Shown in pieces: positions 1 through 19,673 of a stretch of DNA of 21,101 bases (position 1 is its first letter; every line of letters starts with the position of its first letter). The stretch is from a virus. Under the pieces are notes generated by a model, which saw only the letters and a list, made by a program, of their open reading frames with translations, did not search any database and had not been told where the DNA came from. The stretch lies in UHGV virus genome UHGV-1793583. One strand, given 5' to 3'. The position numbers were made by a program, and so were the translations under genes.

Positions 1-18
1 CAATATAGGTTTTAAGAT

Positions 19-231
19 ATGAAAAGTAACCGCAAGCGCCTTGTAAGGGCATACGACAAAGCATTAATGGCTTTTGATGATCTGCGACGCAATAAGCGCC
101 AGCGCCGTAAATGGGCGCGCATGCTTGTAAGGGAATGGCATAGTGAGGAATATTTCCTTGAGGCCAGGCACATGACGCAGGATGTAGCTGACATGTTAGC
201 TGACGAGAACGTTTATTATATGATGTGGTGA
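19..231 (+). CDS. hypothetical early protein (70 aa, basic)
   Basis: ATG ORF from track; stop 4 nt before next start; no recognisable motif. Confidence 0.45.
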   Translation: MKSNRKRLVRAYDKALMAFDDLRRNKRQRRKWARMLVREWHSEEYFLEARHMTQDVADMLADENVYYMMW

Positions 232-235
232 TAAT

Positions 236-601
236 ATGCAAATAATCATTGATTATCTCTGTCATGCTGTGAATACGCTTTTTGGTTTTTATCAACAACC
301 ATTCCTCAAAGAATGGGATGAAATGCTTAATGACATTATTGACAAAGGGTTAATAATGGAGGTTGACGATCTCACAATCAAATTTAATTACGATGGTAAG
401 GAATATCAAATTTGGGTAGGTAATAGATGGTACGCATACGGACATATTTATTCAATTGGCGGTAAATACATTAAACGAAGCCAGGAGTTCAGGCCGCGAT
501 TCAGAACAATGCGCAGACTGCATGACCTGCATATGAATATATTTGAAGATCAGGAAGAGCGCGAACTATTCAAGATCTACGGAGATAAATCATGGAATTA
601 A
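236..601 (+). CDS. hypothetical protein (121 aa)
   Basis: ATG at 236 preceded by GGTGA; stop overlaps next start (ATGGAATTAA). Confidence 0.5.
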   Translation: MQIIIDYLCHAVNTLFGFYQQPFLKEWDEMLNDIIDKGLIMEVDDLTIKFNYDGKEYQIWVGNRWYAYGHIYSIGGKYIKRSQEFRPRFRTMRRLHDLHMNIFEDQEERELFKIYGDKSWN

Positions 602-822
602 AAATCTGGCAGGCTATCGACGTTGTTGATAACGCGTTGTCTATGTTCGCCACCGATGGGAAACGCGTAGCAATCACTACATGGACGCACAACTATGATG
701 ATATTTCTTTTCGTCGCAGAACGGCGGAGTGGTTTTTCTCTGAAGGCGGCTACACGATGAACATCGCACAGCTTGCCAGAATGAAAGATGAAAAGCTGGT
801 GGACAGCTACACAACTGCGTAA
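592..822 (+). CDS. hypothetical protein (76 aa)
   Basis: ATG at 592 with GGAG 8 nt upstream; overlaps previous stop. Confidence 0.5.
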   Translation: MELKIWQAIDVVDNALSMFATDGKRVAITTWTHNYDDISFRRRTAEWFFSEGGYTMNIAQLARMKDEKLVDSYTTA

Positions 823-832
823 CGGGGTAAAT

Positions 833-1066
833 ATGCGTATCTATGAACACAAGCGGGATAAAACCCGCTTTTTTGTTCGTGCTGGCGTGGCGTACCAGTA
901 TCACGAATGCGGTTACATTGAGGCGCTTACTTACGATCTGGACTTCGAGCAAGAAAAGGAATGGTTCGATTTTAAAATTTACCGTAAGCGCAAACCAACT
1001 CGCGACGAGCGCCACGCTATCCGTGAATTTTTAATCAGCATTGAACGTTGGGAGACAGAAGAGTGA
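833..1066 (+). CDS. hypothetical protein (77 aa)
   Basis: Internal ATG at 833 of track ORF 788..1066, preceded by GGGG (824-827); chosen because 788 start overlaps upstream gene. Confidence 0.45.
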   Translation: MRIYEHKRDKTRFFVRAGVAYQYHECGYIEALTYDLDFEQEKEWFDFKIYRKRKPTRDERHAIREFLISIERWETEE

Positions 1067-1290
1067 AAGTTAAATTCTTGCACGATCACGGTTATCCGTC
1101 ATTGAAACAGGTTGTTGGTAAGGTGGTTGACGTCGTTCATAGTGATAATGTTACTTGCATGATTAACGGTGCTGACCTCATTGCCGCTGGCGCTGATGAC
1201 CATTACATCAATCCGGCATGGTCGTATACGTTCAGCCTTGCCGACTTCGTTGGCGACAAGGGGCGCGGGCTGCAAGTAGTCGAGGGTTAA
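1063..1290 (+). CDS. hypothetical protein (about 75 aa)
   Basis: Track ORF 1048..1290 begins at TTG; GTG at 1063 sits 7 nt after GGGAGA and overlaps upstream stop; start uncertain. Confidence 0.4.
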   Translation: MKVKFLHDHGYPSLKQVVGKVVDVVHSDNVTCMINGADLIAAGADDHYINPAWSYTFSLADFVGDKGRGLQVVEG

Positions 1291-1294
1291 TATC

Positions 1295-1543
1295 ATGGAC
1301 GTTTACGAAGATCTATACCTTCAGACGAATACCCACACTTTTTATTTTTTGAAAAACGGCGTTGTATATCGCAGTGACGACGGGGCGGTAATGAAGGAGT
1401 GGTTATTTAAGCGTAAAGACATACTCGACGATCTGGTTTTTGCCGGGATATTTCGTAAACGTCCGGCTAACCTGGAAGAAGAAATGTTGATTGAGGTAAT
1501 TAAAAATGAAAATCAGGGTAAGTTATTTCCGGGCGAAAGATAA
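1295..1543 (+). CDS. hypothetical protein (82 aa)
   Basis: ATG at 1295 with GAGGG about 8 nt upstream. Confidence 0.5.
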   Translation: MDVYEDLYLQTNTHTFYFLKNGVVYRSDDGAVMKEWLFKRKDILDDLVFAGIFRKRPANLEEEMLIEVIKNENQGKLFPGER

Positions 1544-1757
1544 GGCAACAGGAAAGCAGATGGCGATCCTGGTTAACGAGGCGCAGTACATGTTTGTCCT
1601 TCAGCCGTGGTGTGTTGTAGATCTTAACGACAACTGTCGCCGCCACGCTGCGCGAAGTGCTGTTGGTATGAAAGGCTGGCAACCGCGCGACATGGAAAGC
1701 TATTGTGAATGGAAACTGATAGCAAAATATACGGTCGATTATAAAGGTGTGTTCTGA
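1506..1757 (+). CDS. hypothetical protein (83 aa)
   Basis: ATG at 1506 with GAGGT upstream; overlaps previous gene by 38 nt in another frame. Confidence 0.4.
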   Translation: MKIRVSYFRAKDKATGKQMAILVNEAQYMFVLQPWCVVDLNDNCRRHAARSAVGMKGWQPRDMESYCEWKLIAKYTVDYKGVF

Positions 1758-1821
1758 TGGGTGTTTCTTTCACGTAAGAAATATAAAACGTGATCTACCT
1801 CGCAAAGTATACGAAATGGCA

Positions 1822-1850
1822 TTGTTTCGGCAGTGCCATTTTGTTATATA
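1822..1850 (+). promoter_or_regulatory. sigma70-like promoter TTGTTT-N17-TATATA, embedded in inverted repeat AAATGGCA/TGCCATTT
   Basis: -35 at 1822-1827, 17-bp spacer, -10 at 1845-1850 with TG at 1842-1843; lies in the 110-bp gap before gene 1869. Confidence 0.5.
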
Positions 1851-1868
1851 TAAGCCACCGAAAGACGG

Positions 1869-2180
1869 ATGGGCAAAATCATGAAAAGCAATAAATTCAT
1901 AGCGTGCTGTTTTGTTGAAGTACCTGAAGGTGATGTCTTCTGCAATTACGAATTTAAAGACAGTTGGGGAAAATCTCATGTTGTAGTTGGCAAGCGCGGG
2001 GACTGGTTATACATAACAGACGATGACATGATTTTTACTGTAAGCCAGTTATTCAAAATTAAGTCAGAAAATAGTGAAGCACCACTTTGCAGAATGTTTA
2101 ACATGCATTATCACTCACTATTATTGTTAAAACAAGATGTTGTAAACAAAGCGCGTAGCTTACCTGGTGCCGAATTTTAA
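1869..2180 (+). CDS. hypothetical protein (103 aa; alternative start ATG 1881)
   Basis: First gene after the 1822-1850 promoter; ORF from track. Confidence 0.5.
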   Translation: MGKIMKSNKFIACCFVEVPEGDVFCNYEFKDSWGKSHVVVGKRGDWLYITDDDMIFTVSQLFKIKSENSEAPLCRMFNMHYHSLLLLKQDVVNKARSLPGAEF

Positions 2181-2203
2181 TTTCTTACGAAGGAGAATGA
2201 CAA

Positions 2204-2527
2204 ATGTCTAAATTTATCAGCGTTAAAGTTTTTCGTGGCACTTTTCCAGAAGATGAAAAAAATGGACAATTCGCCGGACAACCTGGCGCATGTTTCCGTG
2301 TAGCAACTGACAACGAAGATTGCGTAAAATGCTACCACGTATCTGAACCTCCTTTTGACGTGAAAGATCTTGATAATGCAGATCACGTTAAATTTTTTAT
2401 CTTAGTATCATTGGGACTTAATCCATTCCCTGGTGATGAAGTGGAATTGATTGGCGCTGAACTGGTCGCTGAATACAAAATGACTGAAGGTGTAACAGGG
2501 GGAATTGACATTGAGCGCATCAAATAA
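2204..2527 (+). CDS. hypothetical protein (107 aa)
   Basis: ATG at 2204 with AGGAG upstream (cgaaggagaatgacaaATG). Confidence 0.55.
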   Translation: MSKFISVKVFRGTFPEDEKNGQFAGQPGACFRVATDNEDCVKCYHVSEPPFDVKDLDNADHVKFFILVSLGLNPFPGDEVELIGAELVAEYKMTEGVTGGIDIERIK

Positions 2528-2759
2528 GCCATACAAAATCAGGTGCAAAGGCGAATATCCTGGGTTTACGATTGGTTGCGAATATTTGGGCCATATTGGG
2601 TATGGACCTTTTGGTGAATTAGGGATGAATACGCTGGACGATGACGGCGACAGCCGGACGCTTGATCTTGATTCTGATGATTTCGAATACATCCCGCCAG
2701 TAACTTGCCGCGTAGTTGATGATTTTCTGGCTGAACATGAAGACGATGAGGGCGATTAA
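2511..2759 (+). CDS. hypothetical highly acidic protein (about 82 aa)
   Basis: Only TTG starts available (2505 or 2511); GGGGGA 8 nt upstream of 2511; C-terminus DDDGDSRTLDLDSDDFEY...EHEDDEGD. Confidence 0.4.
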   Translation: MSASNKPYKIRCKGEYPGFTIGCEYLGHIGYGPFGELGMNTLDDDGDSRTLDLDSDDFEYIPPVTCRVVDDFLAEHEDDEGD

Positions 2760-2891
2760 ATGGAAGAGTGGTATAAAAATTTATTAATTATGTTTCTTTC
2801 TGAAAATTGGGCGCTATTTGAGCGCTTTTGCGAGGAACATGGTGAAGACCCTAATGATATTTATCACGATCTTGGGGGTGAAGATGATTGA
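2760..2891 (+). CDS. small acidic protein (43 aa), not in supplied track
   Basis: ATG immediately after upstream stop (TAAATG), GAGGG about 9 nt upstream; MEEWYKNLLIMFLSENWALFERFCEEHGEDPNDIYHDLGGEDD; stop overlaps next start (ATGATTGA). Confidence 0.3.
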   Translation: MEEWYKNLLIMFLSENWALFERFCEEHGEDPNDIYHDLGGEDD

Positions 2892-3081
2892 ATGCCTTAT
2901 TGTTGCGGTAGTTATAATTTACCTGGCTGGTGTCATTTTAATGGGAGCTTTTCAGAAAGCTGTTGATAGTGACGGCATTATTTGGTTCGAGCTAGTCTTC
3001 TGGCCTTTCATTACGATATACGCATTCTGTGACGCCATGCGCGTTAACATCATGCGAGCTATTAAGGAGCGCAAGAAATGA
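2884..3081 (+). CDS. small membrane protein (65 aa)
   Basis: ATG at 2884 preceded by GGGGG; MIECLIVAVVIIYLAGVILMGAF... has two hydrophobic stretches; track start 2818 is TTG with no RBS. Confidence 0.45.
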   Translation: MIECLIVAVVIIYLAGVILMGAFQKAVDSDGIIWFELVFWPFITIYAFCDAMRVNIMRAIKERKK

Positions 3082-3260
3082 TTGAAGATGGCGTGTACGC
3101 AGCAACAGTGGTGGAAGGGTTGTTTTATCGCGTGGAAAGTGATGATATTCGCATCCGCGTTGGCGGTGGTGGGTGGGTAGAGCCAATCATTATGACTACG
3201 CGAGAAACAATTAAAATATTTCTTGATGCTGGTGAACTGGTGAAGGTTGGCGACCTATGA
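3078..3260 (+). CDS. hypothetical protein (60 aa)
   Basis: ATG at 3078 with AGGAG 9 nt upstream; ATGA overlap with previous stop. Confidence 0.5.
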   Translation: MIEDGVYAATVVEGLFYRVESDDIRIRVGGGGWVEPIIMTTRETIKIFLDAGELVKVGDL

Positions 3261-3433
3261 ACGAGATCGAAGATGGTATGTATTTTCATAAGGTATTTGA
3301 CATCGCCTATTTGGTAAGAGGTGAAGAGGTGATGATAAGGAATGAAGATGTTCCTTATTGGGAATTAAGCGACATGGATCGCGAACACATGCAAACATTG
3401 CTTGATAACGGCCTGATATACAGAACTGCGTAA
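3257..3433 (+). CDS. hypothetical protein (58 aa), not in supplied track
   Basis: ATG 3257 overlaps upstream stop (ATGA); MNEIEDGMYFHKVFDIAYLVRGEEVMIRNEDVPYWELSDMDREHMQTLLDNGLIYRTA; last ORF before promoter-terminator module. Confidence 0.4.
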   Translation: MNEIEDGMYFHKVFDIAYLVRGEEVMIRNEDVPYWELSDMDREHMQTLLDNGLIYRTA

Positions 3434-3441
3434 AGCCGTAT

Positions 3442-3470
3442 TTGCAGAGCGTAAACAAACAGATTAAAAT
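3442..3470 (+). promoter_or_regulatory. sigma70-like promoter TTGCAG-N17-TAAAAT upstream of lysis cassette
   Basis: -35 at 3442-3447, exact 17-bp spacer, -10 at 3465-3470. Confidence 0.5.
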
Positions 3471-3498
3471 ATTACCTAACAATGCGAAATTGTAATTA

Positions 3499-3520
3499 CC
3501 CGGCCCCGCGCCGGGTTTTT
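3499..3520 (+). terminator. intrinsic terminator (CCCGGC-loop-GCCGGG + T5)
   Basis: 6-bp GC stem, 5-nt loop, then TTTTT; about 30 nt downstream of the promoter -10 and 20 nt before the holin RBS. Confidence 0.65.
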
Positions 3521-3540
3521 GCTTTGTTGGAGGTAAATCT

Positions 3541-3741
3541 ATGTTCGACAGAATACGGGAGGCGTGCGCGTATGTGACTGGGGCCGTAACTGCTTTTTTC
3601 GGCGCGATAACCATCAATGATATTGCCGTCTTTGTGGGTATCTTATCAACCATAGGCACATTTGCCGTTAATTATTACTTCAAATCACAGGAGAACAAGC
3701 GAGCGCAAGAGGAACACGACGCGCGAATGGGGAATAAGTAA
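3541..3741 (+). CDS. holin, two-TMD pinholin-like (66 aa)
   Basis: GGAGGT RBS; two hydrophobic segments and charged C-terminus; directly precedes SAR endolysin. Confidence 0.75.
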   Translation: MFDRIREACAYVTGAVTAFFGAITINDIAVFVGILSTIGTFAVNYYFKSQENKRAQEEHDARMGNK

Positions 3742-4233
3742 ATGATTAGCCAATCGCTGAAAAACAAGATTGTTGCGGCGGCGGCTGGTGGTGCAATCGC
3801 TATTGCGGCTGTAATGATTAAGCAATTAGAGGGCGTGGAATACGATCCTTATCGTGATGTTGTTGGTGTATGGACTGTTTGCTACGGTCACACCGGAAAA
3901 GACATCATGCTTGGGAAGACTTACACGCAATCAGAATGCGATGCTTTGTTAAATAAAGATCTACACAAGACCGCAAAAGCGATTGACCCATATATTAAAG
4001 TCGAAATATCAGATTTTACCCGCGCAGCACTTTATTCATTCGCCTATAACGTAGGCGCAACCAACTTCAAAACATCAACCTTATTGAAGCTACTCAATGA
4101 CGGCAAGAAATCAGAAGCGTGCGCACAGCTTAAACGCTGGGTATACGCTGGCGGTAAGAAGTGGCATGGTCTGGTTAACCGCCGCGAGGTTGAATATGCC
4201 GTTTGCGAATGGGGTGAGAAATGGACAAGGTGA
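3742..4233 (+). CDS. SAR endolysin, T4/P21-type lysozyme (GH24-like), 163 aa
   Basis: N-terminal Ala/Gly-rich signal-anchor-release segment ([16 protein letters not shown]); E-x8-D-x5-T catalytic spacing in [24 protein letters not shown]; resembles phage 21 R as recalled. Confidence 0.85.
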
Positions 4234-4691
4234 AGACGTTAATCATCGCCGCTATCGTTTGTGTCGTTGTTGGGCTTGTTGCCGCGCTTAGTCACTGCCA
4301 GTCAGTGATAAACACAATGCAAAGCGAGCTAACTACTACGCAGGGCGCACTAAAAACAGCAAGTAACACTATTCAGCAGATGAAGGAGCGAAACGCCGAG
4401 CTGTCAAAACTTGATAAGAGGTATCACGATGAAATTAAAGCTATCAGATCTGACATTGCCGATCTGCGCACTGGTATTGATAACGGCACTATCCGGCTGC
4501 GCGTCAACGCAACGCCCGTGCGAGTGTCTGACCCCACCGGATCCGCCAGCGCCATTGATGGAGCCACCTGTAGACTCACTCCCGACGCTGAATCAGCTTA
4601 TCTATCCCTCAGAGAACAACTAAAAACGAAAGACGCTCAGATCACTGGGTTACAGGACTACATCAAAACGCAGTGCTTACGCAAAGAATAA
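4221..4691 (+). CDS. Rz: Rz-like i-spanin (156 aa)
   Basis: N-terminal TM helix then long charged helical periplasmic domain; overlaps endolysin stop; contains embedded Rz1 frame. Confidence 0.8.
4429..4623 (+). CDS. Rz1: Rz1-like o-spanin lipoprotein, embedded in Rz in +1 frame (64 aa precursor)
   Basis: ATG 4429 with AAGAGG 8 nt upstream; signal peptide with lipobox LSGC; proline-rich mature part [12 protein letters not shown]. Confidence 0.75.
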   Translation: MKLKLSDLTLPICALVLITALSGCASTQRPCECLTPPDPPAPLMEPPVDSLPTLNQLIYPSENN

Positions 4692-4970
4692 CAGCGCGTG
4701 GACGTGTCGCCGTTTCCGCCAGCCAGCCATAACCGGGCCAATCCTTCCCGCGAGCGGCGGCGGAAAAGTCAAAAACACGTAATACCGGGTAAACAACCTC
4801 ATTAACAGGTCAGGCGCTACCTGGGTAGAAGAAAGCGCCATTATACAGTTTTATAAAATTCTGAAAACGGTACTCATGCAGCGCCGTTTTTAGTGTTTTA
4901 TAGCTGTTTTCACTCCCTGCGGTGTCCAGTTTTGCGGGGGTTATATTTTTCAGGATAGAGGAATATTCTG

Positions 4971-5555
4971 ATGGCTAAGGCTAAAGGCATCAAGTTGCCT
5001 CAATTCAAAGTTCCGCTCTTTGAGCATACAACTGTTTTCTTCTGCCCGACCCGCGACATGTTTTATGAATTTTGCGAGAAGGCAGGGATTCCGATCGAAC
5101 CTGATTTCGAACTGGCAGGCGGCCTGACATTAACCTGCACGGGTGAGAAAGGCGGTAACTTCTACGTGATCGCAGTATTCGATAATGAGTTAGGAACGCT
5201 GGTACATGAATGCGCCCACACTACGTTCCACGTTTTAAGCGATGTAGGCGTCGTGGCAACCACTGATCCAACTCACCCGGCAAACGAGACTTATGCTTAC
5301 ATGGTAGGCCGCATCTTTGACGCATTCTTCCCGATCCTTGCTGAATCAAACGAAGCACAGGTTGCAGCAATGCAGGCGGCTGAAGTCGTTGAGCAGGCAT
5401 TGGAGCAGGCAGAACAGGCGACTAAATCAGCAGAACAGGCAGTAGAACAGACAGAGGAGCAGAAAGAAGAGAAAAAACCAGCTAAGAAAGGCAAACGTAA
5501 GCCTAAAGCAAAAGAAGCGCTTGTACCGCGCGTGATGAGCTTTAAACGGGGGTGA
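4971..5555 (+). CDS. HExxH-motif protein (putative zinc-metallopeptidase-like) with Glu/Gln/Ala helical linker and Lys-rich tail, 194 aa
   Basis: Motif LVHECAHTTFH; C-terminus KKPAKKGKRKPKAKE; GGATAGAGGA RBS; family not identifiable by eye. Confidence 0.6.
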   Translation: MAKAKGIKLPQFKVPLFEHTTVFFCPTRDMFYEFCEKAGIPIEPDFELAGGLTLTCTGEKGGNFYVIAVFDNELGTLVHECAHTTFHVLSDVGVVATTDPTHPANETYAYMVGRIFDAFFPILAESNEAQVAAMQAAEVVEQALEQAEQATKSAEQAVEQTEEQKEEKKPAKKGKRKPKAKEALVPRVMSFKRG

Positions 5556-5557
5556 TT

Positions 5558-5626
5558 ATGGTTACTTTCCTGTTAGGTTTATTTATCGGAATGGCTGCGG
5601 CTGTAATATTGCTGGTTGGTGAATAA
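5558..5626 (+). CDS. hydrophobic micropeptide 1 (22 aa, MVTFLLGLFIGMAAAVILLVGE)
   Basis: ATG 3 nt after upstream stop, GGGGGTGA RBS; single predicted TM helix. Confidence 0.4.
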   Translation: MVTFLLGLFIGMAAAVILLVGE

Positions 5627-5630
5627 TGTT

Positions 5631-5747
5631 ATGGATGATTATATCATTGCCGGATTGATCGGCATTTCTGTATATCTGGTGGGTTTTATTGCAGTTGCAC
5701 TAATAAACGCAAAGATCAAGCGCTGGGTGGAGGGGCAAGATGATTGA
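5631..5747 (+). CDS. hydrophobic micropeptide 2 (38 aa, MDDYIIAGLIGISVYLVGFIAVALINAKIKRWVEGQDD)
   Basis: ATG 5 nt after previous stop; single TM helix, charged C-terminus. Confidence 0.4.
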   Translation: MDDYIIAGLIGISVYLVGFIAVALINAKIKRWVEGQDD

Positions 5748-5814
5748 CCCACTCGTTATCCTTTCTTTATGCGTCGCTGTATGGCTGGCGATCATGATAT
5801 TCATTGAAAGCTGA
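5740..5814 (+). CDS. hydrophobic micropeptide 3 (24 aa, MIDPLVILSLCVAVWLAIMIFIES)
   Basis: GGAGGGG 6 nt upstream; ATGATTGA overlap with previous ORF. Confidence 0.4.
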   Translation: MIDPLVILSLCVAVWLAIMIFIES

Positions 5815-5825
5815 AGGTATTCACC

Positions 5826-5900
5826 ATGAATATTTACGATCTCATCTGGTGGTCAGTGGTCGCCGTCATTATCTATTTCTGGTGGAAGAATGTTGTATAG
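5826..5900 (+). CDS. hydrophobic micropeptide 4 (24 aa, MNIYDLIWWSVVAVIIYFWWKNVV)
   Basis: GAAGG 7 nt upstream of ATG; single TM helix. Confidence 0.4.
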   Translation: MNIYDLIWWSVVAVIIYFWWKNVV

Positions 5901-5908
5901 GTGACGGC

Positions 5909-6013
5909 ATGGATATATTCGAATTACTGGCGATTATGTGCGGAATGATGCTAGGCGTTGTCGCCATAATCATAATCATAATCATCGGCCTTGTTATGGG
6001 TAGCATCAAATGA
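5909..6013 (+). CDS. hydrophobic micropeptide 5 (34 aa, MDIFELLAIMCGMMLGVVAIIIIIIIGLVMGSIK)
   Basis: AGGTGA upstream of ATG 5909; contains (ATAATC)x3 repeat encoding the Ile run; track ORF 5804..6013 is the non-ATG extension. Confidence 0.4.
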   Translation: MDIFELLAIMCGMMLGVVAIIIIIIIGLVMGSIK

Positions 6014-6090
6014 ACGCATACGAAATGCTATTGCTGGTGGCTGTTATTACAGTTATTGCCGTTGATTTCTATCGAGGGTTTAAAAGATGA
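6010..6090 (+). CDS. hydrophobic micropeptide 6 (26 aa, MNAYEMLLLVAVITVIAVDFYRGFKR)
   Basis: ATGA start/stop overlap with micropeptide 5. Confidence 0.4.
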   Translation: MNAYEMLLLVAVITVIAVDFYRGFKR

Positions 6091-6158
6091 GAGAAGCAGA
6101 CTTCTTTTGCATGATTATAGTGATTGTCATCGTTGCGGTGCTTTTAAGTGTTAACTGA
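6087..6158 (+). CDS. hydrophobic micropeptide 7 (23 aa, MREADFFCMIIVIVIVAVLLSVN)
   Basis: ATGA start/stop overlap with micropeptide 6. Confidence 0.4.
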   Translation: MREADFFCMIIVIVIVAVLLSVN

Positions 6159-6174
6159 ATCGCAGGAGTTAAAA

Positions 6175-6243
6175 ATGAAATGGCTTGATTTCTTTTTCCT
6201 GATTGTCGCAATTGTTCTAACCATGACCGCGCTGACTCAATAG
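6175..6243 (+). CDS. hydrophobic micropeptide 8 (22 aa, MKWLDFFFLIVAIVLTMTALTQ)
   Basis: AGGAG 7 nt upstream of ATG 6175. Confidence 0.4.
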   Translation: MKWLDFFFLIVAIVLTMTALTQ

Positions 6244-6311
6244 GTTGTGGCTTGGACGCGCATTTTATGCGCTTCCTAAATTCATCAAGTCAAATAAAGT
6301 GGATGGTAACG

Positions 6312-6503
6312 ATGAAAGAGCTATTCGACTTTCTGGAAACGGTAACATACTGCGCAACATTAATTGCGTGTTTATATATTCTGTGCAAATGGTTTTTGAG
6401 AGGTGAAATATGGCCCGCACTAAAAAGGCAAAAGCTGACGATAAAAAGCCAGCAGCTAAAAAGGTTGGCCGTCCGCATGGTTATACCGAAGAAAAGGCAT
6501 TAG
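6312..6503 (+). CDS. possible ninth membrane micropeptide (MKELFDFLETVTYCATLIACLYILCKWFL...); 3' part overlaps terS
   Basis: Same N-terminal pattern as the array members; frame runs 94 nt into terS, so true extent uncertain. Confidence 0.25.
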   Translation: MKELFDFLETVTYCATLIACLYILCKWFLRGEIWPALKRQKLTIKSQQLKRLAVRMVIPKKRH

Positions 6504-6895
6504 AGATCTGTGAGCTGGTGGCGGACGGTCAAAGTATTAACAGGATTTCGAAGATGCCTGATATGCCTGCGCGTTCAACAATCCTTAAATGGTTCAAAGA
6601 CGTGCCAGAGTTCTCGGACATGTACATACGCGCGAAAGAGATCGGTTTTGAGGTATTGGCTGATGAGATTATCGACATAGCTGACGCAGCGGAGAACACC
6701 GATAAAGACCAATGCCGCCGCCATCAATTGATGATTGAAACCCGTAAATGGCTATTGGCAAAACTGCAACCGCGTAAGTATGGCGAACGCGTTACGCAGG
6801 AAATCGTAGGCAACAGGGAAGAAGCACCAGTACAGGTAGAAGTCACAAAAGAAGAGATTGCCCGCATCGTTCAGGAGGTAGAAGATGAGGTGTGA
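6410..6895 (+). CDS. terS: terminase small subunit (161 aa)
   Basis: Strong RBS GAGAGGTGA; basic N-terminus, HTH-like segment, acidic C-terminus; directly precedes and overlaps terL start. Confidence 0.75.
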   Translation: MARTKKAKADDKKPAAKKVGRPHGYTEEKALEICELVADGQSINRISKMPDMPARSTILKWFKDVPEFSDMYIRAKEIGFEVLADEIIDIADAAENTDKDQCRRHQLMIETRKWLLAKLQPRKYGERVTQEIVGNREEAPVQVEVTKEEIARIVQEVEDEV

Positions 6896-6897
6896 TT

Positions 6898-8376
6898 ATG
6901 CTGACAATCAAAGAACGAGTTATTCAGTCCAAATGTGAAAACGATGGCCTGTTTTTCAATCGCTACTTCTATAAGCAAGCGAACGGAACGAAGATGTTAA
7001 TCTCAGGCCATCACTTAGCTATCCGCGACGCACTGCAACGCGTTGTCAATGGTGAGATAACCCGACTCATCATTAACATCCCTCCAGGGTACGGCAAAAC
7101 CATGATCGCAACTATCAACATGATGGCGCGGTCACTCGCAATAAATCCCCGCACACGATTCCTTCATGTCTCCTATTCCAACAACCTGGCGTTACTCAAT
7201 TCCTCGACCGTAAGAAACATGATCTGTACGCCTGAATATCAGGCAATGTGGCCCATGAGGATCCGCAACGATGCAAACTCAAAATCAATGTGGTGGACTG
7301 AATACGGTGGCGGCGTGTATGCAACGTCATCGCTTGGCCAGGTTACAGGGTTCCGCGCGGGGTATATGGAACCAGGATTTAACGGCGCGTTAATCATCGA
7401 CGACCCATTAAAACCCGCTGACGCTTACTCTGACGTGGTGAGAAAGCAGGTTAACACAAACTATAACGACACGCTTGCTTCACGTCTGGCAGTGCAAACA
7501 ACGCCTGTTATCGTCATCATGCAGCGCATCCACTACGATGATTTGTCCGGCTACCTGCTACGCGGTGGGAGCGGTGAAAAGTGGTATCACCTTAACCTGC
7601 CAGTGAAAATCGACAATAGCGTTGACTACCGGGATTTGTACCCTGAAAACGAGTTCGCTATCCCCATTCCTCATAACCTGCCAGATGGCTGGCTATGGCC
7701 TAAAAAGCACAATGACGCCCATGAAGCTGGGCTGAAAGCACACAGACGGTCATTTGAGGCCCAGTACATGCAGCGCCCGCGTAAATTCGACGAAGAGGGT
7801 GCGTTGTGGACAGAGGCGATGATTACCGCCGCGCACCGGATGCAGATAACGCAGGAGAAAATCCGCACTGTGATAGCCATCGACCCGGCGACAACGTCAT
7901 CTGATGAGTCGGACGAAACGGGGATCATGGCGTGTTCCGCCTATGGTGGCGGCAAGAATGCTCAGTATTCTGTTGATGGTGACTACTCGGGCCGCATGTC
8001 ACCTAATGACTGGGCGCAAGCATCAATGAACGCCTACAACATCCATGAAGCTGACGCGATAGTCATCGAAACCAACCAGGGCGGCGAAATGGCAGAGGCC
8101 ACTTTGCGTAATGCCGGATTCAAAGGCCGCATTGTTAAGGTGCACGCAAGTAAAGGTAAGTTCGCCCGTGCTGAACCAATATCGGCACTGTATGCACAAG
8201 GAAGGGTGGCACACACTGGTGAGCTATACACGCTGGAAAATCAAATGATGGAATACGTGCCAGCCACCGCCAAAAAATCCCCTGACCGTATGGATGCGAT
8301 GGTATGGGGTATCACCGAATTAAGCCAGCCACAGGCAATGGGCCTCATGTTACCGAAGCGCCTGCGCGGATTTTAA
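6898..8376 (+). CDS. terL: terminase large subunit (492 aa)
   Basis: Walker A PPGYGKT, Walker B-like LIIDDP, nuclease-type acidic residues (VIAIDPA, DETGIMA); GAGGTG RBS 5 nt before ATG 6898. Confidence 0.9.
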   Translation: MLTIKERVIQSKCENDGLFFNRYFYKQANGTKMLISGHHLAIRDALQRVVNGEITRLIINIPPGYGKTMIATINMMARSLAINPRTRFLHVSYSNNLALLNSSTVRNMICTPEYQAMWPMRIRNDANSKSMWWTEYGGGVYATSSLGQVTGFRAGYMEPGFNGALIIDDPLKPADAYSDVVRKQVNTNYNDTLASRLAVQTTPVIVIMQRIHYDDLSGYLLRGGSGEKWYHLNLPVKIDNSVDYRDLYPENEFAIPIPHNLPDGWLWPKKHNDAHEAGLKAHRRSFEAQYMQRPRKFDEEGALWTEAMITAAHRMQITQEKIRTVIAIDPATTSSDESDETGIMACSAYGGGKNAQYSVDGDYSGRMSPNDWAQASMNAYNIHEADAIVIETNQGGEMAEATLRNAGFKGRIVKVHASKGKFARAEPISALYAQGRVAHTGELYTLENQMMEYVPATAKKSPDRMDAMVWGITELSQPQAMGLMLPKRLRGF

Positions 8377-8409: not shown

Positions 8410-8439
8410 TTTTTCGCGTAGCAACGCGTAAACATGTAT
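8410..8439. promoter_or_regulatory. conserved 30-nt leader element TTTTTCGCGTAGCAACGCGTAAACATGTAT (copy A)
   Basis: 27 of 30 identical to copy at 20512-20541; both lie 15-30 nt upstream of an SD; CGCG-hexaloop-CGCG hairpin potential. Confidence 0.45.
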
Positions 8440-8454
8440 TCAGGAGTAAACATT

Positions 8455-9825
8455 ATGCCATCCAATTTAGAATTGGCGGTTAATGCTGCCTTGTCACAAC
8501 GTAAGGCGGCCTATGCCCGCTATGCAGCCGCCAACCCATTCACTATGGGGATAGATGCCAAACGCGATACTGCGTGGAGTGAATACGGATTCAAAGAAGA
8601 GATCACGTATGACGACCTGTACAAACTGTACAGACGCGGTGGTATCGCTCACGGTGCTGTGGAAAAGATTGTTACTACTTGCTGGCGCACCAAGCCAAAG
8701 ATGATCGAAGGAACTGAAGACGGGAAAGCGAAAAAGGAAACACCGTGGGAAAGAGAAATCAAGAAGAAATTTAACAACAGATTTTGGCGCACTGTTGCTG
8801 AATGTGATCGCCGCCGCCTCATTGGTCGTTATGCTGGCCTGTTGATTCATGTCAGAGATAACCAGCCGTGGGATCAGCCAGTGACAAAAGGCGTAGGCAT
8901 TGCCAAATTTACCCCGGTATGGGCTGGCGCTCTTACACCGAAGGACTTCGAAGAAAACCCGGATAATGAAAACTATGGCCTGCCAACGTGGTGGGAATAC
9001 AAAGAACGCATTAACAGTAAGACCATTGCTAGAAAGATCCACCCTGACCGCATATTCATCTTTGGCGACTATTCTGATGATGTCATCGCTTTCCTTGAAC
9101 CGTCCTATAACGCCTTTGTGTCACTTGAGAAGGTGGAAGGGGGTAGCGGTGAATCATTCCTGAAAAACGCCGCCCGCCAGCTTGCTATCTCGTTCGATAA
9201 AGAGATTGACTTCCGTTCCCTTGCTGCAACATACGATTGCGACGTTACAGAGTTACGCGAAAGATTTAATGAGGCTACTGCTGAAATGAATAAGGGTAAT
9301 GACGTAATGATGGCGTTACAGGGTGCAACAGTAAGCCCGCTGGTTACTGCTGTATCTGACCCGTCATCAACCTATGACGTAAACCTGCAAACCGCCGCCG
9401 CTGGTGTTGATATTCCAACCCGCATCCTGGTTGGGAACCAGCAGGGAGAACGCGCATCAACCGAAGACCTGCGTTACTTCAACAGCCGCTGCATGACCCG
9501 CAGGGAGGAAATCGGTGGCGAGATTGAAGATCTGTTCCGCAAGATGGCAGATCTACGCCTTATCAGTATGCCAGTAGACGTATCAGTGCTATGGGACGAC
9601 CTTAACGCCATGACCAAAGCGGAGCTACTGGAAGCCGCAGACAAGATGGCGCAAATCAATCAGGCTTGTTTGGCTACTGGTGAAGAAATATTTAGCGGTG
9701 ACGAGATCCGCGAGGCTGCCGGATACGATGGCCCAGCCAGTGTAGTAGAAACGGAAGAGGAAGACGATGATGAAGGTGAAGAAGATAATCAGGCGAATAC
9801 CTCCAGCCGCGATAATGCCATCTAA
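8455..9825 (+). CDS. portal protein (456 aa)
   Basis: Immediately after terL; size and acidic C-terminus typical of portals; ATG 8455 with GGAG 8 nt upstream preferred over track start 8434. Confidence 0.7.
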   Translation: MPSNLELAVNAALSQRKAAYARYAAANPFTMGIDAKRDTAWSEYGFKEEITYDDLYKLYRRGGIAHGAVEKIVTTCWRTKPKMIEGTEDGKAKKETPWEREIKKKFNNRFWRTVAECDRRRLIGRYAGLLIHVRDNQPWDQPVTKGVGIAKFTPVWAGALTPKDFEENPDNENYGLPTWWEYKERINSKTIARKIHPDRIFIFGDYSDDVIAFLEPSYNAFVSLEKVEGGSGESFLKNAARQLAISFDKEIDFRSLAATYDCDVTELRERFNEATAEMNKGNDVMMALQGATVSPLVTAVSDPSSTYDVNLQTAAAGVDIPTRILVGNQQGERASTEDLRYFNSRCMTRREEIGGEIEDLFRKMADLRLISMPVDVSVLWDDLNAMTKAELLEAADKMAQINQACLATGEEIFSGDEIREAAGYDGPASVVETEEEDDDEGEEDNQANTSSRDNAI

Positions 9826-10711
9826 CACCGAAGACCCGACCATGACAGGGAAGTTACGGTCGGGAGCTATCAAGCGTTTTAAAGCCTGCCTGAAGAAAGT
9901 TGCGGATCCGTATATTGCCATACTGGACAGAATACAATATACCCTGGCTGTTAATAAGAAATACACCTTTCAGATCTACATTGACGAATTGCATGATTTG
10001 CTGGAAGACGCCAGCGACATGATTGATGAAATATTCGAGTTAACAGACCCGGAAAACTTCTGGTTCTGGCAGAATTACGTGAAAGTGGCATATCAGCGCG
10101 GCACTTCTCAGGAATATGCCAACCTCGCTAACCAGTCAGTCACATATTCCAGAGCTTACCCTGAAGTGTCAGCGGTATTAACCAGTCAGACATATCGCAC
10201 GCGCCTTGCCCTGGTGCGTACCCGTGTATTTGAAGAGATGCGCGGGCTGACCGCACAGATCAAGAAGGATATGGCCCGCCGATTAACCGAAGGCATGGCC
10301 CGTGGCTTAAACCCACTCGAAATAGCGCGCACATTGCAGCAGGAAACGCAATTGCCGCTATACAGGTGCAAACGTATTGCCCGTACTGAAATATGCACAG
10401 CGTTGCGCACAGCGCGTATGGATGAGGCAGAGGCCGCATCGGATGAGCTTAATTTGCGCACTATGCAGATGCACATTTCGGCATTGTCACCGACTACCAG
10501 GTTATCACACGCGCAGCGGCACGGAAAAACGTACACCATAGACGAGCAGCGCGAATGGTGGAGTAAATCCCCCAATTCAATTAACTGCAAATGTAGCACA
10601 ATTACCGTGCTGGTGGATGAATCTGGTAACATATTAAACAAAAGAATCCTTGAGCGAGCGCAAGAAAATTACAAAGTTGCGCACGCTAAATATGGCGAAG
10701 ATTGGGAGTAA
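9767..10711 (+). CDS. head morphogenesis protein, Mu F-like / SPP1 gp7-like (314 aa)
   Basis: Follows portal; contains RIARTE motif (CKRIARTEICTALRTARMDEAEA) recalled as typical of Mu F-like proteins; start overlaps portal 3' end by 59 nt, uncertain. Confidence 0.7.
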   Translation: MMKVKKIIRRIPPAAIMPSNTEDPTMTGKLRSGAIKRFKACLKKVADPYIAILDRIQYTLAVNKKYTFQIYIDELHDLLEDASDMIDEIFELTDPENFWFWQNYVKVAYQRGTSQEYANLANQSVTYSRAYPEVSAVLTSQTYRTRLALVRTRVFEEMRGLTAQIKKDMARRLTEGMARGLNPLEIARTLQQETQLPLYRCKRIARTEICTALRTARMDEAEAASDELNLRTMQMHISALSPTTRLSHAQRHGKTYTIDEQREWWSKSPNSINCKCSTITVLVDESGNILNKRILERAQENYKVAHAKYGEDWE

Positions 10712-12447: not shown

Positions 12448-13500
12448 ATGTACTTTACTAAAGAAAACCTTGCTACCAACGCCCGTATGCAGGGCCATTG
12501 GAAAGAACTGTGGGCGCAACGCAACATCTTCAACGATCAGCATGACGCCATGATTGCAGCAAACAAAGCAAACATGACCGCTGAAATGATTGCCTGTAAC
12601 GCTGTTGGTGGCTTCGCAAAAGAGTTCTGGAAAGAAATTGATAACCAGATCATCGAACTGAACACCGAAGAAATCGGTATTGAAATCGTCAACGACCTGA
12701 TGGGTGTGCAAACCGTACTGCCTATCGGTAAAACGCTGAAAATGTACAGCGTATCCGGTGACATCAACGATGAAGTCGTAATGTCTATGGATGGTCAAGC
12801 GCCGCACGGCTATGATCACACCGAATACGGCAGCGATGGCGACCCGATCCCGATGTTCGCAGCGGGTTACGGTGTTAACTGGCGTTTAGCCCAGGGCTTA
12901 AATACTGTAGGCATCGACCTTGCCCTGGATAGCCAGCGCCTGAAACTGAAAAAATTCAACAAAGCACGCGTTAAATTCTACCTTGAAGGTAACGAAAACA
13001 TCGTGGTTGATGGTCATAAAGCTATGGGTATTAAAAAACATAAAAACACCCAGCAACTGACCTTGACTACTGACCTTACCACTGCAAAATTTGACGCACT
13101 GATCGACTTCTTCACCGTTGGTGAATTTGGTGTTCTGGCCCGCAATAACTTCGTTGCAAAATATGATGTGATGTGGGTATCACCTGAAATCATGGCTAAC
13201 CTGGCACGTCCGCACATCGTTAACGGTGCTGTCGTTGGTAGCGTACTCAACACGGTTATGCCGTTCGCCCCTGTTGGTGAAATCCGTCAGACCTTTGCGC
13301 TGAAAGGCAACGAAATCATTGCTTATCAGCGCCGCCGTGACGTCATCACCCCGCTGATCGGTATGACTACTGGTGTAGTTCCTGTTCCTCGCTTTATGCC
13401 GACTGATAACTATAACTTCAAAATCATGTCAGCAGAAGGTTTACAAATCACCTGCGACATGCTGGGCCGTTCCGGTGTAGTTTACGGCAAAAAATCTTAA
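12448..13500 (+). CDS. major capsid protein (350 aa)
   Basis: Strong RBS AAAAGGGGA; size and position typical; followed directly by strong intrinsic terminator. Confidence 0.7.
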   Translation: MYFTKENLATNARMQGHWKELWAQRNIFNDQHDAMIAANKANMTAEMIACNAVGGFAKEFWKEIDNQIIELNTEEIGIEIVNDLMGVQTVLPIGKTLKMYSVSGDINDEVVMSMDGQAPHGYDHTEYGSDGDPIPMFAAGYGVNWRLAQGLNTVGIDLALDSQRLKLKKFNKARVKFYLEGNENIVVDGHKAMGIKKHKNTQQLTLTTDLTTAKFDALIDFFTVGEFGVLARNNFVAKYDVMWVSPEIMANLARPHIVNGAVVGSVLNTVMPFAPVGEIRQTFALKGNEIIAYQRRRDVITPLIGMTTGVVPVPRFMPTDNYNFKIMSAEGLQITCDMLGRSGVVYGKKS

Positions 13501-13520
13501 TTATAACGTTTCCTGTAACT

Positions 13521-13548
13521 CCCCGGCGCGATGCCGGGGATTTTTTTT
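13521..13548 (+). terminator. intrinsic terminator after major capsid gene (CCCCGGC-loop-GCCGGGG + T8)
   Basis: 7-bp GC stem, 5-nt loop, ATTTTTTTT tail. Confidence 0.75.
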
Positions 13549-15868: not shown

Positions 15869-15893
15869 GGGGCCACATGGCCCCTTTATTTTT
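15869..15893 (+). terminator. intrinsic terminator after tail tube gene (GGGGCC-ACAT-GGCCCC + TTTATTTTT)
   Basis: Perfect 6-bp GC stem, 4-nt loop, T-rich tail. Confidence 0.7.
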
Positions 15894-19643: not shown

Positions 19644-19673
19644 AACCCCGGTACAATGCCGGGGTTATCTTTT
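19644..19673. terminator. bidirectional intrinsic terminator (AACCCCGG-loop-CCGGGGTT)
   Basis: 8-bp stem, 7-nt loop; T-rich on plus side (ATCTTTT) and on minus side (TAGTTTATTT); between TMP stop and minus-strand cassette. Confidence 0.55.

Follow-up and report, generated by a model that had tools for sequence, protein, structure and literature searches.

How RNA polymerase gains access to the late genes of a temperate phage when a strong intrinsic terminator stands directly in front of them is the question raised by a short stretch of the virus genome UHGV-1793583, of which 21,101 nucleotides (hereafter the window, numbered from its first letter) were analysed. Promoter-like hexamers are followed there almost at once by a hairpin, and the hairpin by the ribosome-binding site of a holin gene. 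The original prediction, made from the letters alone, took this order of elements as the signature of late transcription under antitermination control and supposed that lysis and downstream genes would be expressed only when a Q-like or other processive antiterminator modifies the polymerase. We address here from which phage the locus comes, which letters would serve as promoter, pause element and terminator, where the antiterminator is encoded and to what family it belongs, and how well other explanations account for the same stretch.

Source phage

Over positions 2800-4800 the window is 92.6% identical to phage mEp010 and 89-92% identical to mEp013, mEp021, mEp044, mEp515, mEp554 and MagusPhagus (the last a cultured, viable phage), and over positions 1-3500 it is 99.6% identical to a prophage of Escherichia coli WCHEC025970. 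Judged by these identities, the window is an mEpimmI-type temperate coliphage or prophage. The mEpimmI phages have been described recently as a gut-prevalent E. coli group of Nus-dependent, temperate, 'non-lambdoid' coliphages (PMC11893012).

Elements of the control region

The elements discussed below, all on the plus strand, are the following.

3078-3433, + strand: two tandem paralogous ORFs of 60 and 58 aa, both phrog_15318, function not known
3441-3446, + strand: alternative -35 hexamer TTTGCA (4/6 match, 18-nt spacer)
3442-3447, + strand: -35-like hexamer TTGCAG (weak, 3/6 match to TTGACA)
3453-3464, + strand: conserved part of the spacer, AAACAAACAGAT, candidate Q-binding element from its position only
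3465-3470, + strand: -10 hexamer TAAAAT (5/6 match; 17-nt spacer after TTGCAG)
3478-3483, + strand: AACAAT, predicted start A3478 and predicted sigma70-dependent pause element, -10-like, +1 to +6
3491-3498, + strand: TGTAATTA, +14 to +21, poor -10-like element
3498-3527, + strand: intrinsic terminator, putative tR' equivalent (7-bp stem 3498-3504/3510-3516, loop 3505-3509, U-rich tail)
3530-3534, + strand: ribosome-binding site GGAGG, directly after the terminator
3541-3741, + strand: holin, 66 aa (PF16080 Phage_holin_2_3, E = 1.8e-14; phrog_20)
3742-4233, + strand: endolysin (PF00959, E = 1.3e-45)
4221-4691, + strand: Rz-like spanin (PF03245, E = 2.1e-27)
4861-4900, + strand: second intrinsic terminator, between lysis and packaging genes (fold -20.7 kcal/mol, z = -5.35; TERM_6 of mEp021)
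13520-13548, + strand: third strong terminator, after a 350-aa ORF at 12448-13500 (9-bp stem with 7 GC pairs, then T8)
15869-15884 and 19644-19666, + strand: further strong co-directional terminators from the window scan

The hexamers TTGCAG and TAAAAT, 17 nt apart, are present as had been described; the window reads TTGCAG-N17-TAAAAT-ATTACCT-AACAATGCGAAATTG, the stretch between the -10 and the hairpin being made up of ATTACCT and then AACAATGCGAAATTGTAATT. To call this a near-consensus promoter, on the other hand, overstated the match, since TTGCAG agrees with the -35 consensus at only three of six positions, and matches of 9/12 quality, the score that the promoter scan gave to the pairing TTTGCA-N18-TAAAAT, are not enriched in the window (11 found versus 15.2 +/- 3.5 in shuffles). 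The match score alone is no evidence, and the promoter becomes credible only because of the conservation and homology described below.

The predicted start, A3478, is a purine 8 nt past the -10 with a pyrimidine before it; with this base taken as +1, G3484 is +7 and T3493 is +16. The hexamer AACAAT begins 7 nt after the -10 and carries A at its second and T at its sixth position, as sigma needs, and would thus be a pause element at +1 to +6, start site and pause both being predictions from these letters. In lambda the pause lies at +16 (PMC4005639). A different octamer, TGTAATTA, had been put forward as the pause element; a G stands in it at the place of the essential A(-11), and at its T(-7) position, T3496, roughly half of the relatives have C, while the pause-element position at +1 to +6 is occupied by the invariant AACAAT. 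On account of these bases we reject it as the sigma-binding pause element, and it more likely marks the region in which the 3' end of the paused RNA would be expected.

The claim of a strong terminator directly upstream of the holin ribosome-binding site was borne out. The G+C-rich hairpin ACCCGGC-CCCGC-GCCGGGT (3498-3516), whose stem holds 6 GC pairs and which is followed by TTTTTGCTTTG, is the top-ranked terminator-like site in a scan of window positions 1-8000, and its RNA folds at -18.1 kcal/mol (z = -2.8). The same terminator appears as TERM_5 (score 100) in the mEp021 GenBank record and as ARNold T9, T10 and T8 in those of mEp010, mEp013 and mEp044, respectively. It starts at +21, so that the predicted terminated RNA would measure about 46-48 nt (3478 to about 3524), and only 14 nt separate the terminator from the ribosome-binding site, TTTTTGCTTTGTT being the stretch between hairpin and GGAGG. 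Holin, endolysin and spanin form the start of the late operon, and packaging and structural genes lie further downstream. The presence of several co-directional terminators within this operon calls for processive antitermination and fits it better than a simple activator.

Conservation across related loci

The region was gathered from seven phage records, from E. coli prophages found via BLAST (35 genomes) and from IMG/VR contigs, the last yielding 44 loci via the promoter core and 45 via the terminator alone, with 42 common to both; the three retrieved via the terminator only are one discriminator base off the promoter core. The invariance of 3464-3486 in the 44 IMG/VR loci is partly forced by the search pattern, but it is reproduced in the loci retrieved by the terminator alone and by BLAST. 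Pairwise identities, computed over 40 distinct sequences from 56 loci, were as follows.

3' end of the upstream ORF: 51%
-35 region (3434-3447): 75%
-35/-10 spacer: 80%, AAACAA and GAT invariant
-10 TAAAAT: 100%
AACAAT, 3478-3483: 100%
rest of the initial transcribed region: 90%, GCGAAA invariant
hairpin arms: 98-99%
hairpin loop: 78%
5' part of the holin gene: 86%

The -35 is weak and variable throughout the mEpimmI relatives, with TTGTAG, TTGTGG, TTGTTG and TTGTAT among its variants, and in the MagusPhagus subclade it is unrecognisable, TCGCGC (2/6) standing in its place without an extended -10. The spacer holds 9 invariant positions out of 17 in the 40 distinct sequences, those of AAACAA and GAT. 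According to the annotation of the phi80 record, the Q-binding site of lambda and phi80 lies between -35 and -10; within the mEpimmI group, no covariation was found between the type of Q arm and the spacer sequence.

Mosaic junctions fall just upstream of 3453, several prophages having lost homology upstream of exactly that position, and one prophage carries a 250-nt extra ORF right before the promoter; an insertion between the -10 and the terminator was seen in none of the loci compared. Together, these junctions and the lack of insertions indicate that the unit under selection extends from about -25 to the ribosome-binding site. A minus-strand ORF at 3255-3659 was considered as a cause of the conservation and dismissed, as it matches no family. 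A composite of the form TAnnnT-N6-7-AAC[AG]NT would be expected about 3.3 times in the 42 kb that both strands make up, or roughly 0.003 times in the 40 nt before the terminator. The putative sigma70 promoter ahead of the pause element would combine an invariant -10 with a -35 that is weak, variable and, in one subclade, absent.

The antiterminator and the small upstream ORFs

The antiterminator had been expected to lie outside the window or else to be of an unrecognised type, and it is the former alternative that holds. In the WCHEC025970 prophage, the 99.6% twin of the window, the Q gene ends 734 nt before window position 1 and 4,198 nt before the -10; the annotation of that prophage names its product 'antitermination protein'. 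The protein, of 240-242 aa, is an ordinary Q-lambda-family member: it matches PF03589 'Antitermination protein Q' with 102.9 bits against a cut-off of 26.7 (E = 1e-29), a family that is Q-lambda by definition in PMC9388147, as well as PHROG 127, and it aligns with Q-lambda (7UBM_Q, E = 3e-39) over most of the chain, with the exception of an extra zinc-ribbon insertion that distinguishes mEp Q from Q-lambda. In this alignment the zinc-ribbon cysteines are kept, as is the stretch at the N terminus from which the nozzle is built, and the insertion, a second CxxC...CxxC, is shared with Q of ST104, Evi and phi80.

Unlike in the 'cassette' defined in PMC9388147, the Q gene does not adjoin the promoter. 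In each of the 23 related loci with sufficient upstream sequence, 1,931-6,729 nt separate it from the -10, the interval in the mEpimmI loci being filled with variable small ORFs. A search for a rival qut site near Q returned nothing other than a qut-like TAAGCT-N7-AACGAT after the gene in L032, mEp010 and MagusPhagus, which we reject, as it lies inside the coding sequence of the next ORF, has neither -35 nor terminator, and is absent from mEp021.

The two ORFs immediately upstream of the promoter are small, as had been noted (60 and 58 aa), and a role for them in readthrough had been contemplated. They are phrog_15318 paralogues and are swapped for unrelated ORFs in the UMNK88, STEC308 and E21845 prophages, which keep the module; such replacement speaks against them as antiterminators and indicates that they are not part of the switch. 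Among the other ORFs of 1-3433, no regulatory annotation was found.

Comparison with known Q systems

Seven phages of the Q-lambda family were read directly (lambda, P22, ST104, Evi, phi80, PhiR47_1 and a Klebsiella phage), and in all of them the -10 is followed, after 5-7 nt, by (T)AAC[GA]xT, the hexamer at +1 being AACGAT in lambda and P22, AACAGT in ST104, and AACGAT or AACGCT in Evi, PhiR47_1, phi80 and the Klebsiella phage; in these last four, the first hairpin begins at +40 to +44. We further surveyed 70 loci of the same family whose Q is 34-41% identical to mEp Q; a scan of genome contigs for the Q protein gave no match. The strict pattern TAnnnT-N6-7-AAC[AG]NT occurs in 41 of the 70; there, the -10 follows Q at a distance of 30-68 nt, and the start of the first hairpin has its median at +39 and its mode at +26. 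In the remaining 29, inspection by eye reveals this architecture too, with discriminators of 5 nt or hexamers of the AATGAT type and a promoter similarly close behind Q. Across the seven phages and the 70 loci, the terminator that comes after the hexamer usually lies 26-45 nt downstream. By its letters, the element in the window bears all the hallmarks of this class of promoter. As far as these loci indicate, a promoter-proximal terminator is the norm for the Q-lambda family, and lambda itself, at about +170-194, is the exception. The layout of a promoter with an immediate terminator is thus present in the window as claimed, yet it is no special signature but what the family ordinarily displays; no hairpin of the phages read directly, and none called cleanly in the 70 surveyed loci, begins nearer to the start than the one at +21 here.

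A close correspondence is with lambda, whose antiterminator comes from the same family, PF03589. The lambda region, TTGACT-N17-TAAATT-TGACTC-AACGAT, shares with the window the order of elements, the 6-7 nt between -10 and hexamer, the hexamer at +1 to +6, G at +7, a pyrimidine at +16 and lysis genes after the terminator; it differs in its strong -35, TTGACT, in the position of its terminator (about +170-194 versus +21 here), and in that about 50 nt lie between the end of its Q gene and the -35, versus the 1.9-6.7 kb found here. P22 (BK000583), in whose record P late, qut, the start and 't late' (+31 to +59, directly before the holin gene) are annotated, has almost the promoter sequence of lambda and resembles the window in that the promoter is followed at once by a terminator; however, its gp23 all but equals Q-lambda and shares only about 34% identity with mEp Q, gene 23 adjoins the promoter, and about 300 nt separate terminator and holin as opposed to 14 nt to the ribosome-binding site here. 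The phi80 record likewise annotates pR' and a Q site.

Outside the mEpimmI group, the closest Q proteins are those of the ST104/ES18/SEN22 type (38-40% identity, ST104 about 39%), which also contain the zinc-ribbon insertion. ST104 reads TTGCAA-N17-TATCAT-AACCCT-AACAGTAGAAATCCG, that is, AACCCT and then AACAGT, and its initial transcribed sequence CCTAACAGTAGAAAT resembles CCTAACAATGCGAAAT of the window, being the most similar of those compared; in this type, however, the terminator begins at about +41, Q lies directly upstream and the phages are P22-like lambdoid ones. The Q21 (PF06530) and Q82 (PF06323) systems follow the same logic of a sigma-dependent pause close to the promoter, the loading of Q and antitermination that is processive (PMC9388147), but they belong to unrelated protein families with other Q-binding sites and pause positions and are analogues only. 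Within the same phage group, Gp17 of mEp021 is an N-like protein that acts on early operons via the RNA nut sites nutL, nutR1 and nutR2. Five terminators, t1-t5, are described for mEp021, and the one considered here, TERM_5, is probably the 't5' of PMC11893012. The expectation that late control would need a processive Q-type antiterminator holds at the level of comparative sequence.

Proposed mechanism

We consider it quite probable, given this agreement in layout, conservation and protein family, that 3442-3527 controls the late operon of an mEpimmI phage and is the equivalent of lambda PR'-qut-tR'. The promoter activity, start site, pause, Q binding and Q-dependent readthrough that we infer from the sequence would combine as follows. 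Host sigma70 polymerase would start at about A3478 with the help of the invariant -10 TAAAAT and in spite of a weak -35, whereupon sigma70 would re-bind at AACAAT (+1 to +6) and hold the polymerase at about +16; without phage Q, transcription would end at the +21 hairpin and leave an RNA of about 46 nt. Q would be made from the early rightward operon, itself in need of the N-like antiterminator Gp17, and, once accumulated, would bind DNA in the -35/-10 spacer and load onto the paused polymerase. The polymerase so modified would pass this terminator and those at 4861-4900, 13520-13548, 15869-15884 and 19644-19666, and the holin, endolysin, spanin, packaging and structural genes would then be transcribed.

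By the sequence comparisons made here, the module adds one more case to a textbook mechanism and does not represent a new one, and its unusual features are the hairpin at +21, a Q gene 1.9-6.7 kb away and a -35 that has been lost in one subclade. The short distance between start and hairpin need not be an obstacle: when Q-lambda loads, the 5' end of the transcript passes through the torus of Q while its length increases to 15-16 nt (PMC9388147), and since the first nucleotide of the hairpin is +21, Q could sit in place before the terminator RNA exists. The uncoupling of Q from its site by 2-7 kb of fast-changing ORFs, together with a subclade devoid of any recognisable -35, suggests that loading might also occur independently of the promoter. 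In that event the module would be, in part, a promoter-independent Q-loading site at which a polymerase arriving from the early operon captures sigma70 at AACAAT, loads Q and reads through the terminator 21 nt on, an idea that we regard as unlikely. In a milder form, Q might simply act efficiently in trans over kilobases; lambda Q is said to act, in the classical accounts, preferentially in cis.

Alternative explanations

Unlikely, in our estimation, is an arrangement in which the hairpin is t5, the end terminator of the early/delayed-early rightward operon, polymerase from the early promoter, modified by Gp17 at nutR2, reaches the late genes, and the promoter hexamers are a chance match. From Q up to the holin the genes follow one another in a single direction with hardly a gap, the early operon leading in that direction into this terminator, the promoter-like matches are not above chance and the -35 is not conserved, and PMC11893012 describes Gp17 and three nut sites for mEp021 and lists t5 as an experimentally demonstrated terminator. 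This explanation nevertheless leaves unaccounted for the invariant TAAAAT and AACAAT beside diverging coding DNA, as well as a layout that agrees base for base with PR' promoters of the Q-lambda type; moreover, every member of the group keeps a Q-lambda homologue, which must load somewhere, and the module is the sole candidate for this. Nor does 3440-3530 contain a boxA/boxB-like nut element: nutR1 and nutR2 of mEp021 carry GCTCATTAACAA and GCTCTTTAAAAA plus a hairpin, a boxA of the GCTC(T/A)TTAA type was not found in 3440-3530, and a nut/boxB-like RNA element in 3477-3497 was rejected for want of a boxA and because its would-be stem, CAAT/ATTG, does not hold in relatives whose base at 3490 is C or G. 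N-type readthrough through Gp17 may still add to the action of Q or replace it, and in lambda N-type readthrough does add to that of Q.

The weakness of the -35 could also be read as a sign of an activator-dependent late promoter, in which the spacer, AAACAA..GAT, binds an activator that makes up for the missing -35 and the terminator insulates the late genes from readthrough out of the upstream genes while being weak for local transcripts. A -35 that is weak or absent next to a conserved spacer, and the viability of MagusPhagus without one, would suit such a promoter, but the terminator lies downstream of the start and so acts on these transcripts too, with a 7-bp stem, 6 GC pairs and a good U-tract; AACAAT at +1 to +6 is invariant yet would have no role in pure activation, and no candidate activator besides Q emerged from the ORFs of 1-3433, none of which has an assigned function. 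We deem this reading improbable, and more improbable still one in which the transcript, running for about 46 nt from 3478 to about 3524, acts as a functional small RNA, with the conservation of 3478-3527 stemming from that role, and is made constitutively in lysogens, as lambda PR' constitutively makes the short 6S RNA. Conservation does extend past the pause hexamer, GCGAAA being invariant, but the whole window contains no Rfam 15 match at the gathering threshold (the best sub-threshold match, rnk_pseudo, reached 25.5 versus 55 bits), and there is no covariation, the variation falling in the hairpin loop, at +13 and at +19, as in a plain terminator. We know of no function for the short RNAs homologous to this transcript in lambda or P22.

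Significance

Taking 3442-3527 as a Q-dependent control region of the lambda type, these findings would locate the late-gene switch of the mEpimmI phages, whose records annotate only the terminator and the Q-like gene, and suggest that late control in this group follows the lambda type in all those sequence features that are open to checking. They supply exact bases for mutation and predict an RNA of about 46 nt in lysogens. The locus may thereby serve as a natural test case in two respects, namely how near to the Q-loading site a terminator may lie (+21 here) and whether Q can do its work with kilobases between its gene and the site. For the family at large, the succession of a -10, 5-7 nt, AAC[AG]NT and a terminator within about 45 nt would constitute a usable annotation signature of Q-lambda-type late promoters.

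Late-operon and structural-operon terminators

Intrinsic terminators are also found beyond the late promoter region, and those of the structural-gene operon are strong and co-directional with it:

4861-4900 (4840-4900 with an overlapping promoter-like match): terminator 3' of the spanin gene, homologue of TERM_6 of the related phage mEp021 (z = -5.35)
13520-13548: strong intrinsic terminator, structural-gene operon, co-directional
15869-15884: strong intrinsic terminator, structural-gene operon, co-directional
19644-19666: strong intrinsic terminator, structural-gene operon, co-directional; bidirectional

One of the structural-operon terminators is placed after a 350-aa ORF (12448-13500). The TERM_6 homologue is overlapped by a minus-strand promoter-like match, TTTTCA-16-TATAAT (10/12, at 4867-4840), which is the top-scoring match of this kind on the minus strand of the window. 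The ORF 3' of the large terminase gene (window 8434-9825; 10031-10148 in the UMNK88 prophage, L052) bears the RefSeq name 'anti-CBASS protein Acb1 family protein', and its homologue is labelled portal protein in the mEp021 record.

Q proteins and the small-ORF array

In two relatives the genes for the Q antiterminator lie as follows:

L001, 3579-4301: Q gene
L002, 331-1059: Q gene

Relative to Q-lambda, the mEpimmI Q proteins carry an additional CxxC...CxxC zinc-ribbon insertion, of which two sequence types occur inside the group; which type a phage has shows no correspondence with its variant of the promoter spacer.

From the Q gene to the late promoter extends a hypervariable array, 2-7 kb long, of 8-25 small ORFs (window 1-3433 and related loci), nearly all of them function-unknown, whose number and content vary even among otherwise close phages. 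The two ORFs directly 5' of the promoter (3078-3433) are tandem paralogues, both of the function-unknown family phrog_15318. Further upstream, a hairpin that strongly resembles a terminator (851-870; AAGCGGGATAAAACCCGCTT, then TTTTTG) lies within a small ORF (843-1034) and is not intergenic. Another hairpin, ATGGCATTGTTTCGGCAGTGCCAT with TTTGTT after it, occupies a 110-nt intergenic gap (1757-1870); the record of the related phage mEp010 lists it as terminator T8.

A mosaic junction at the promoter

The TTGCAG -35 hexamer is found in the window only, all relatives having TTGT.. or TCGCGC. It is one of four differences that separate the 112-nt intergenic stretch (3434-3545) from its counterpart in the WCHEC025970 prophage (L226, 7434-7545), which is elsewhere 99.6% identical to the window. 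In the E. coli MLI107 prophage an additional 250-nt ORF, flanked by the direct repeat GCCGTATTTGT, is inserted immediately 5' of the promoter (L065, 455-715), and in several further prophages homology ends precisely at window position 3453. The segment 3434-3452 acts as a recurrent mosaic junction.
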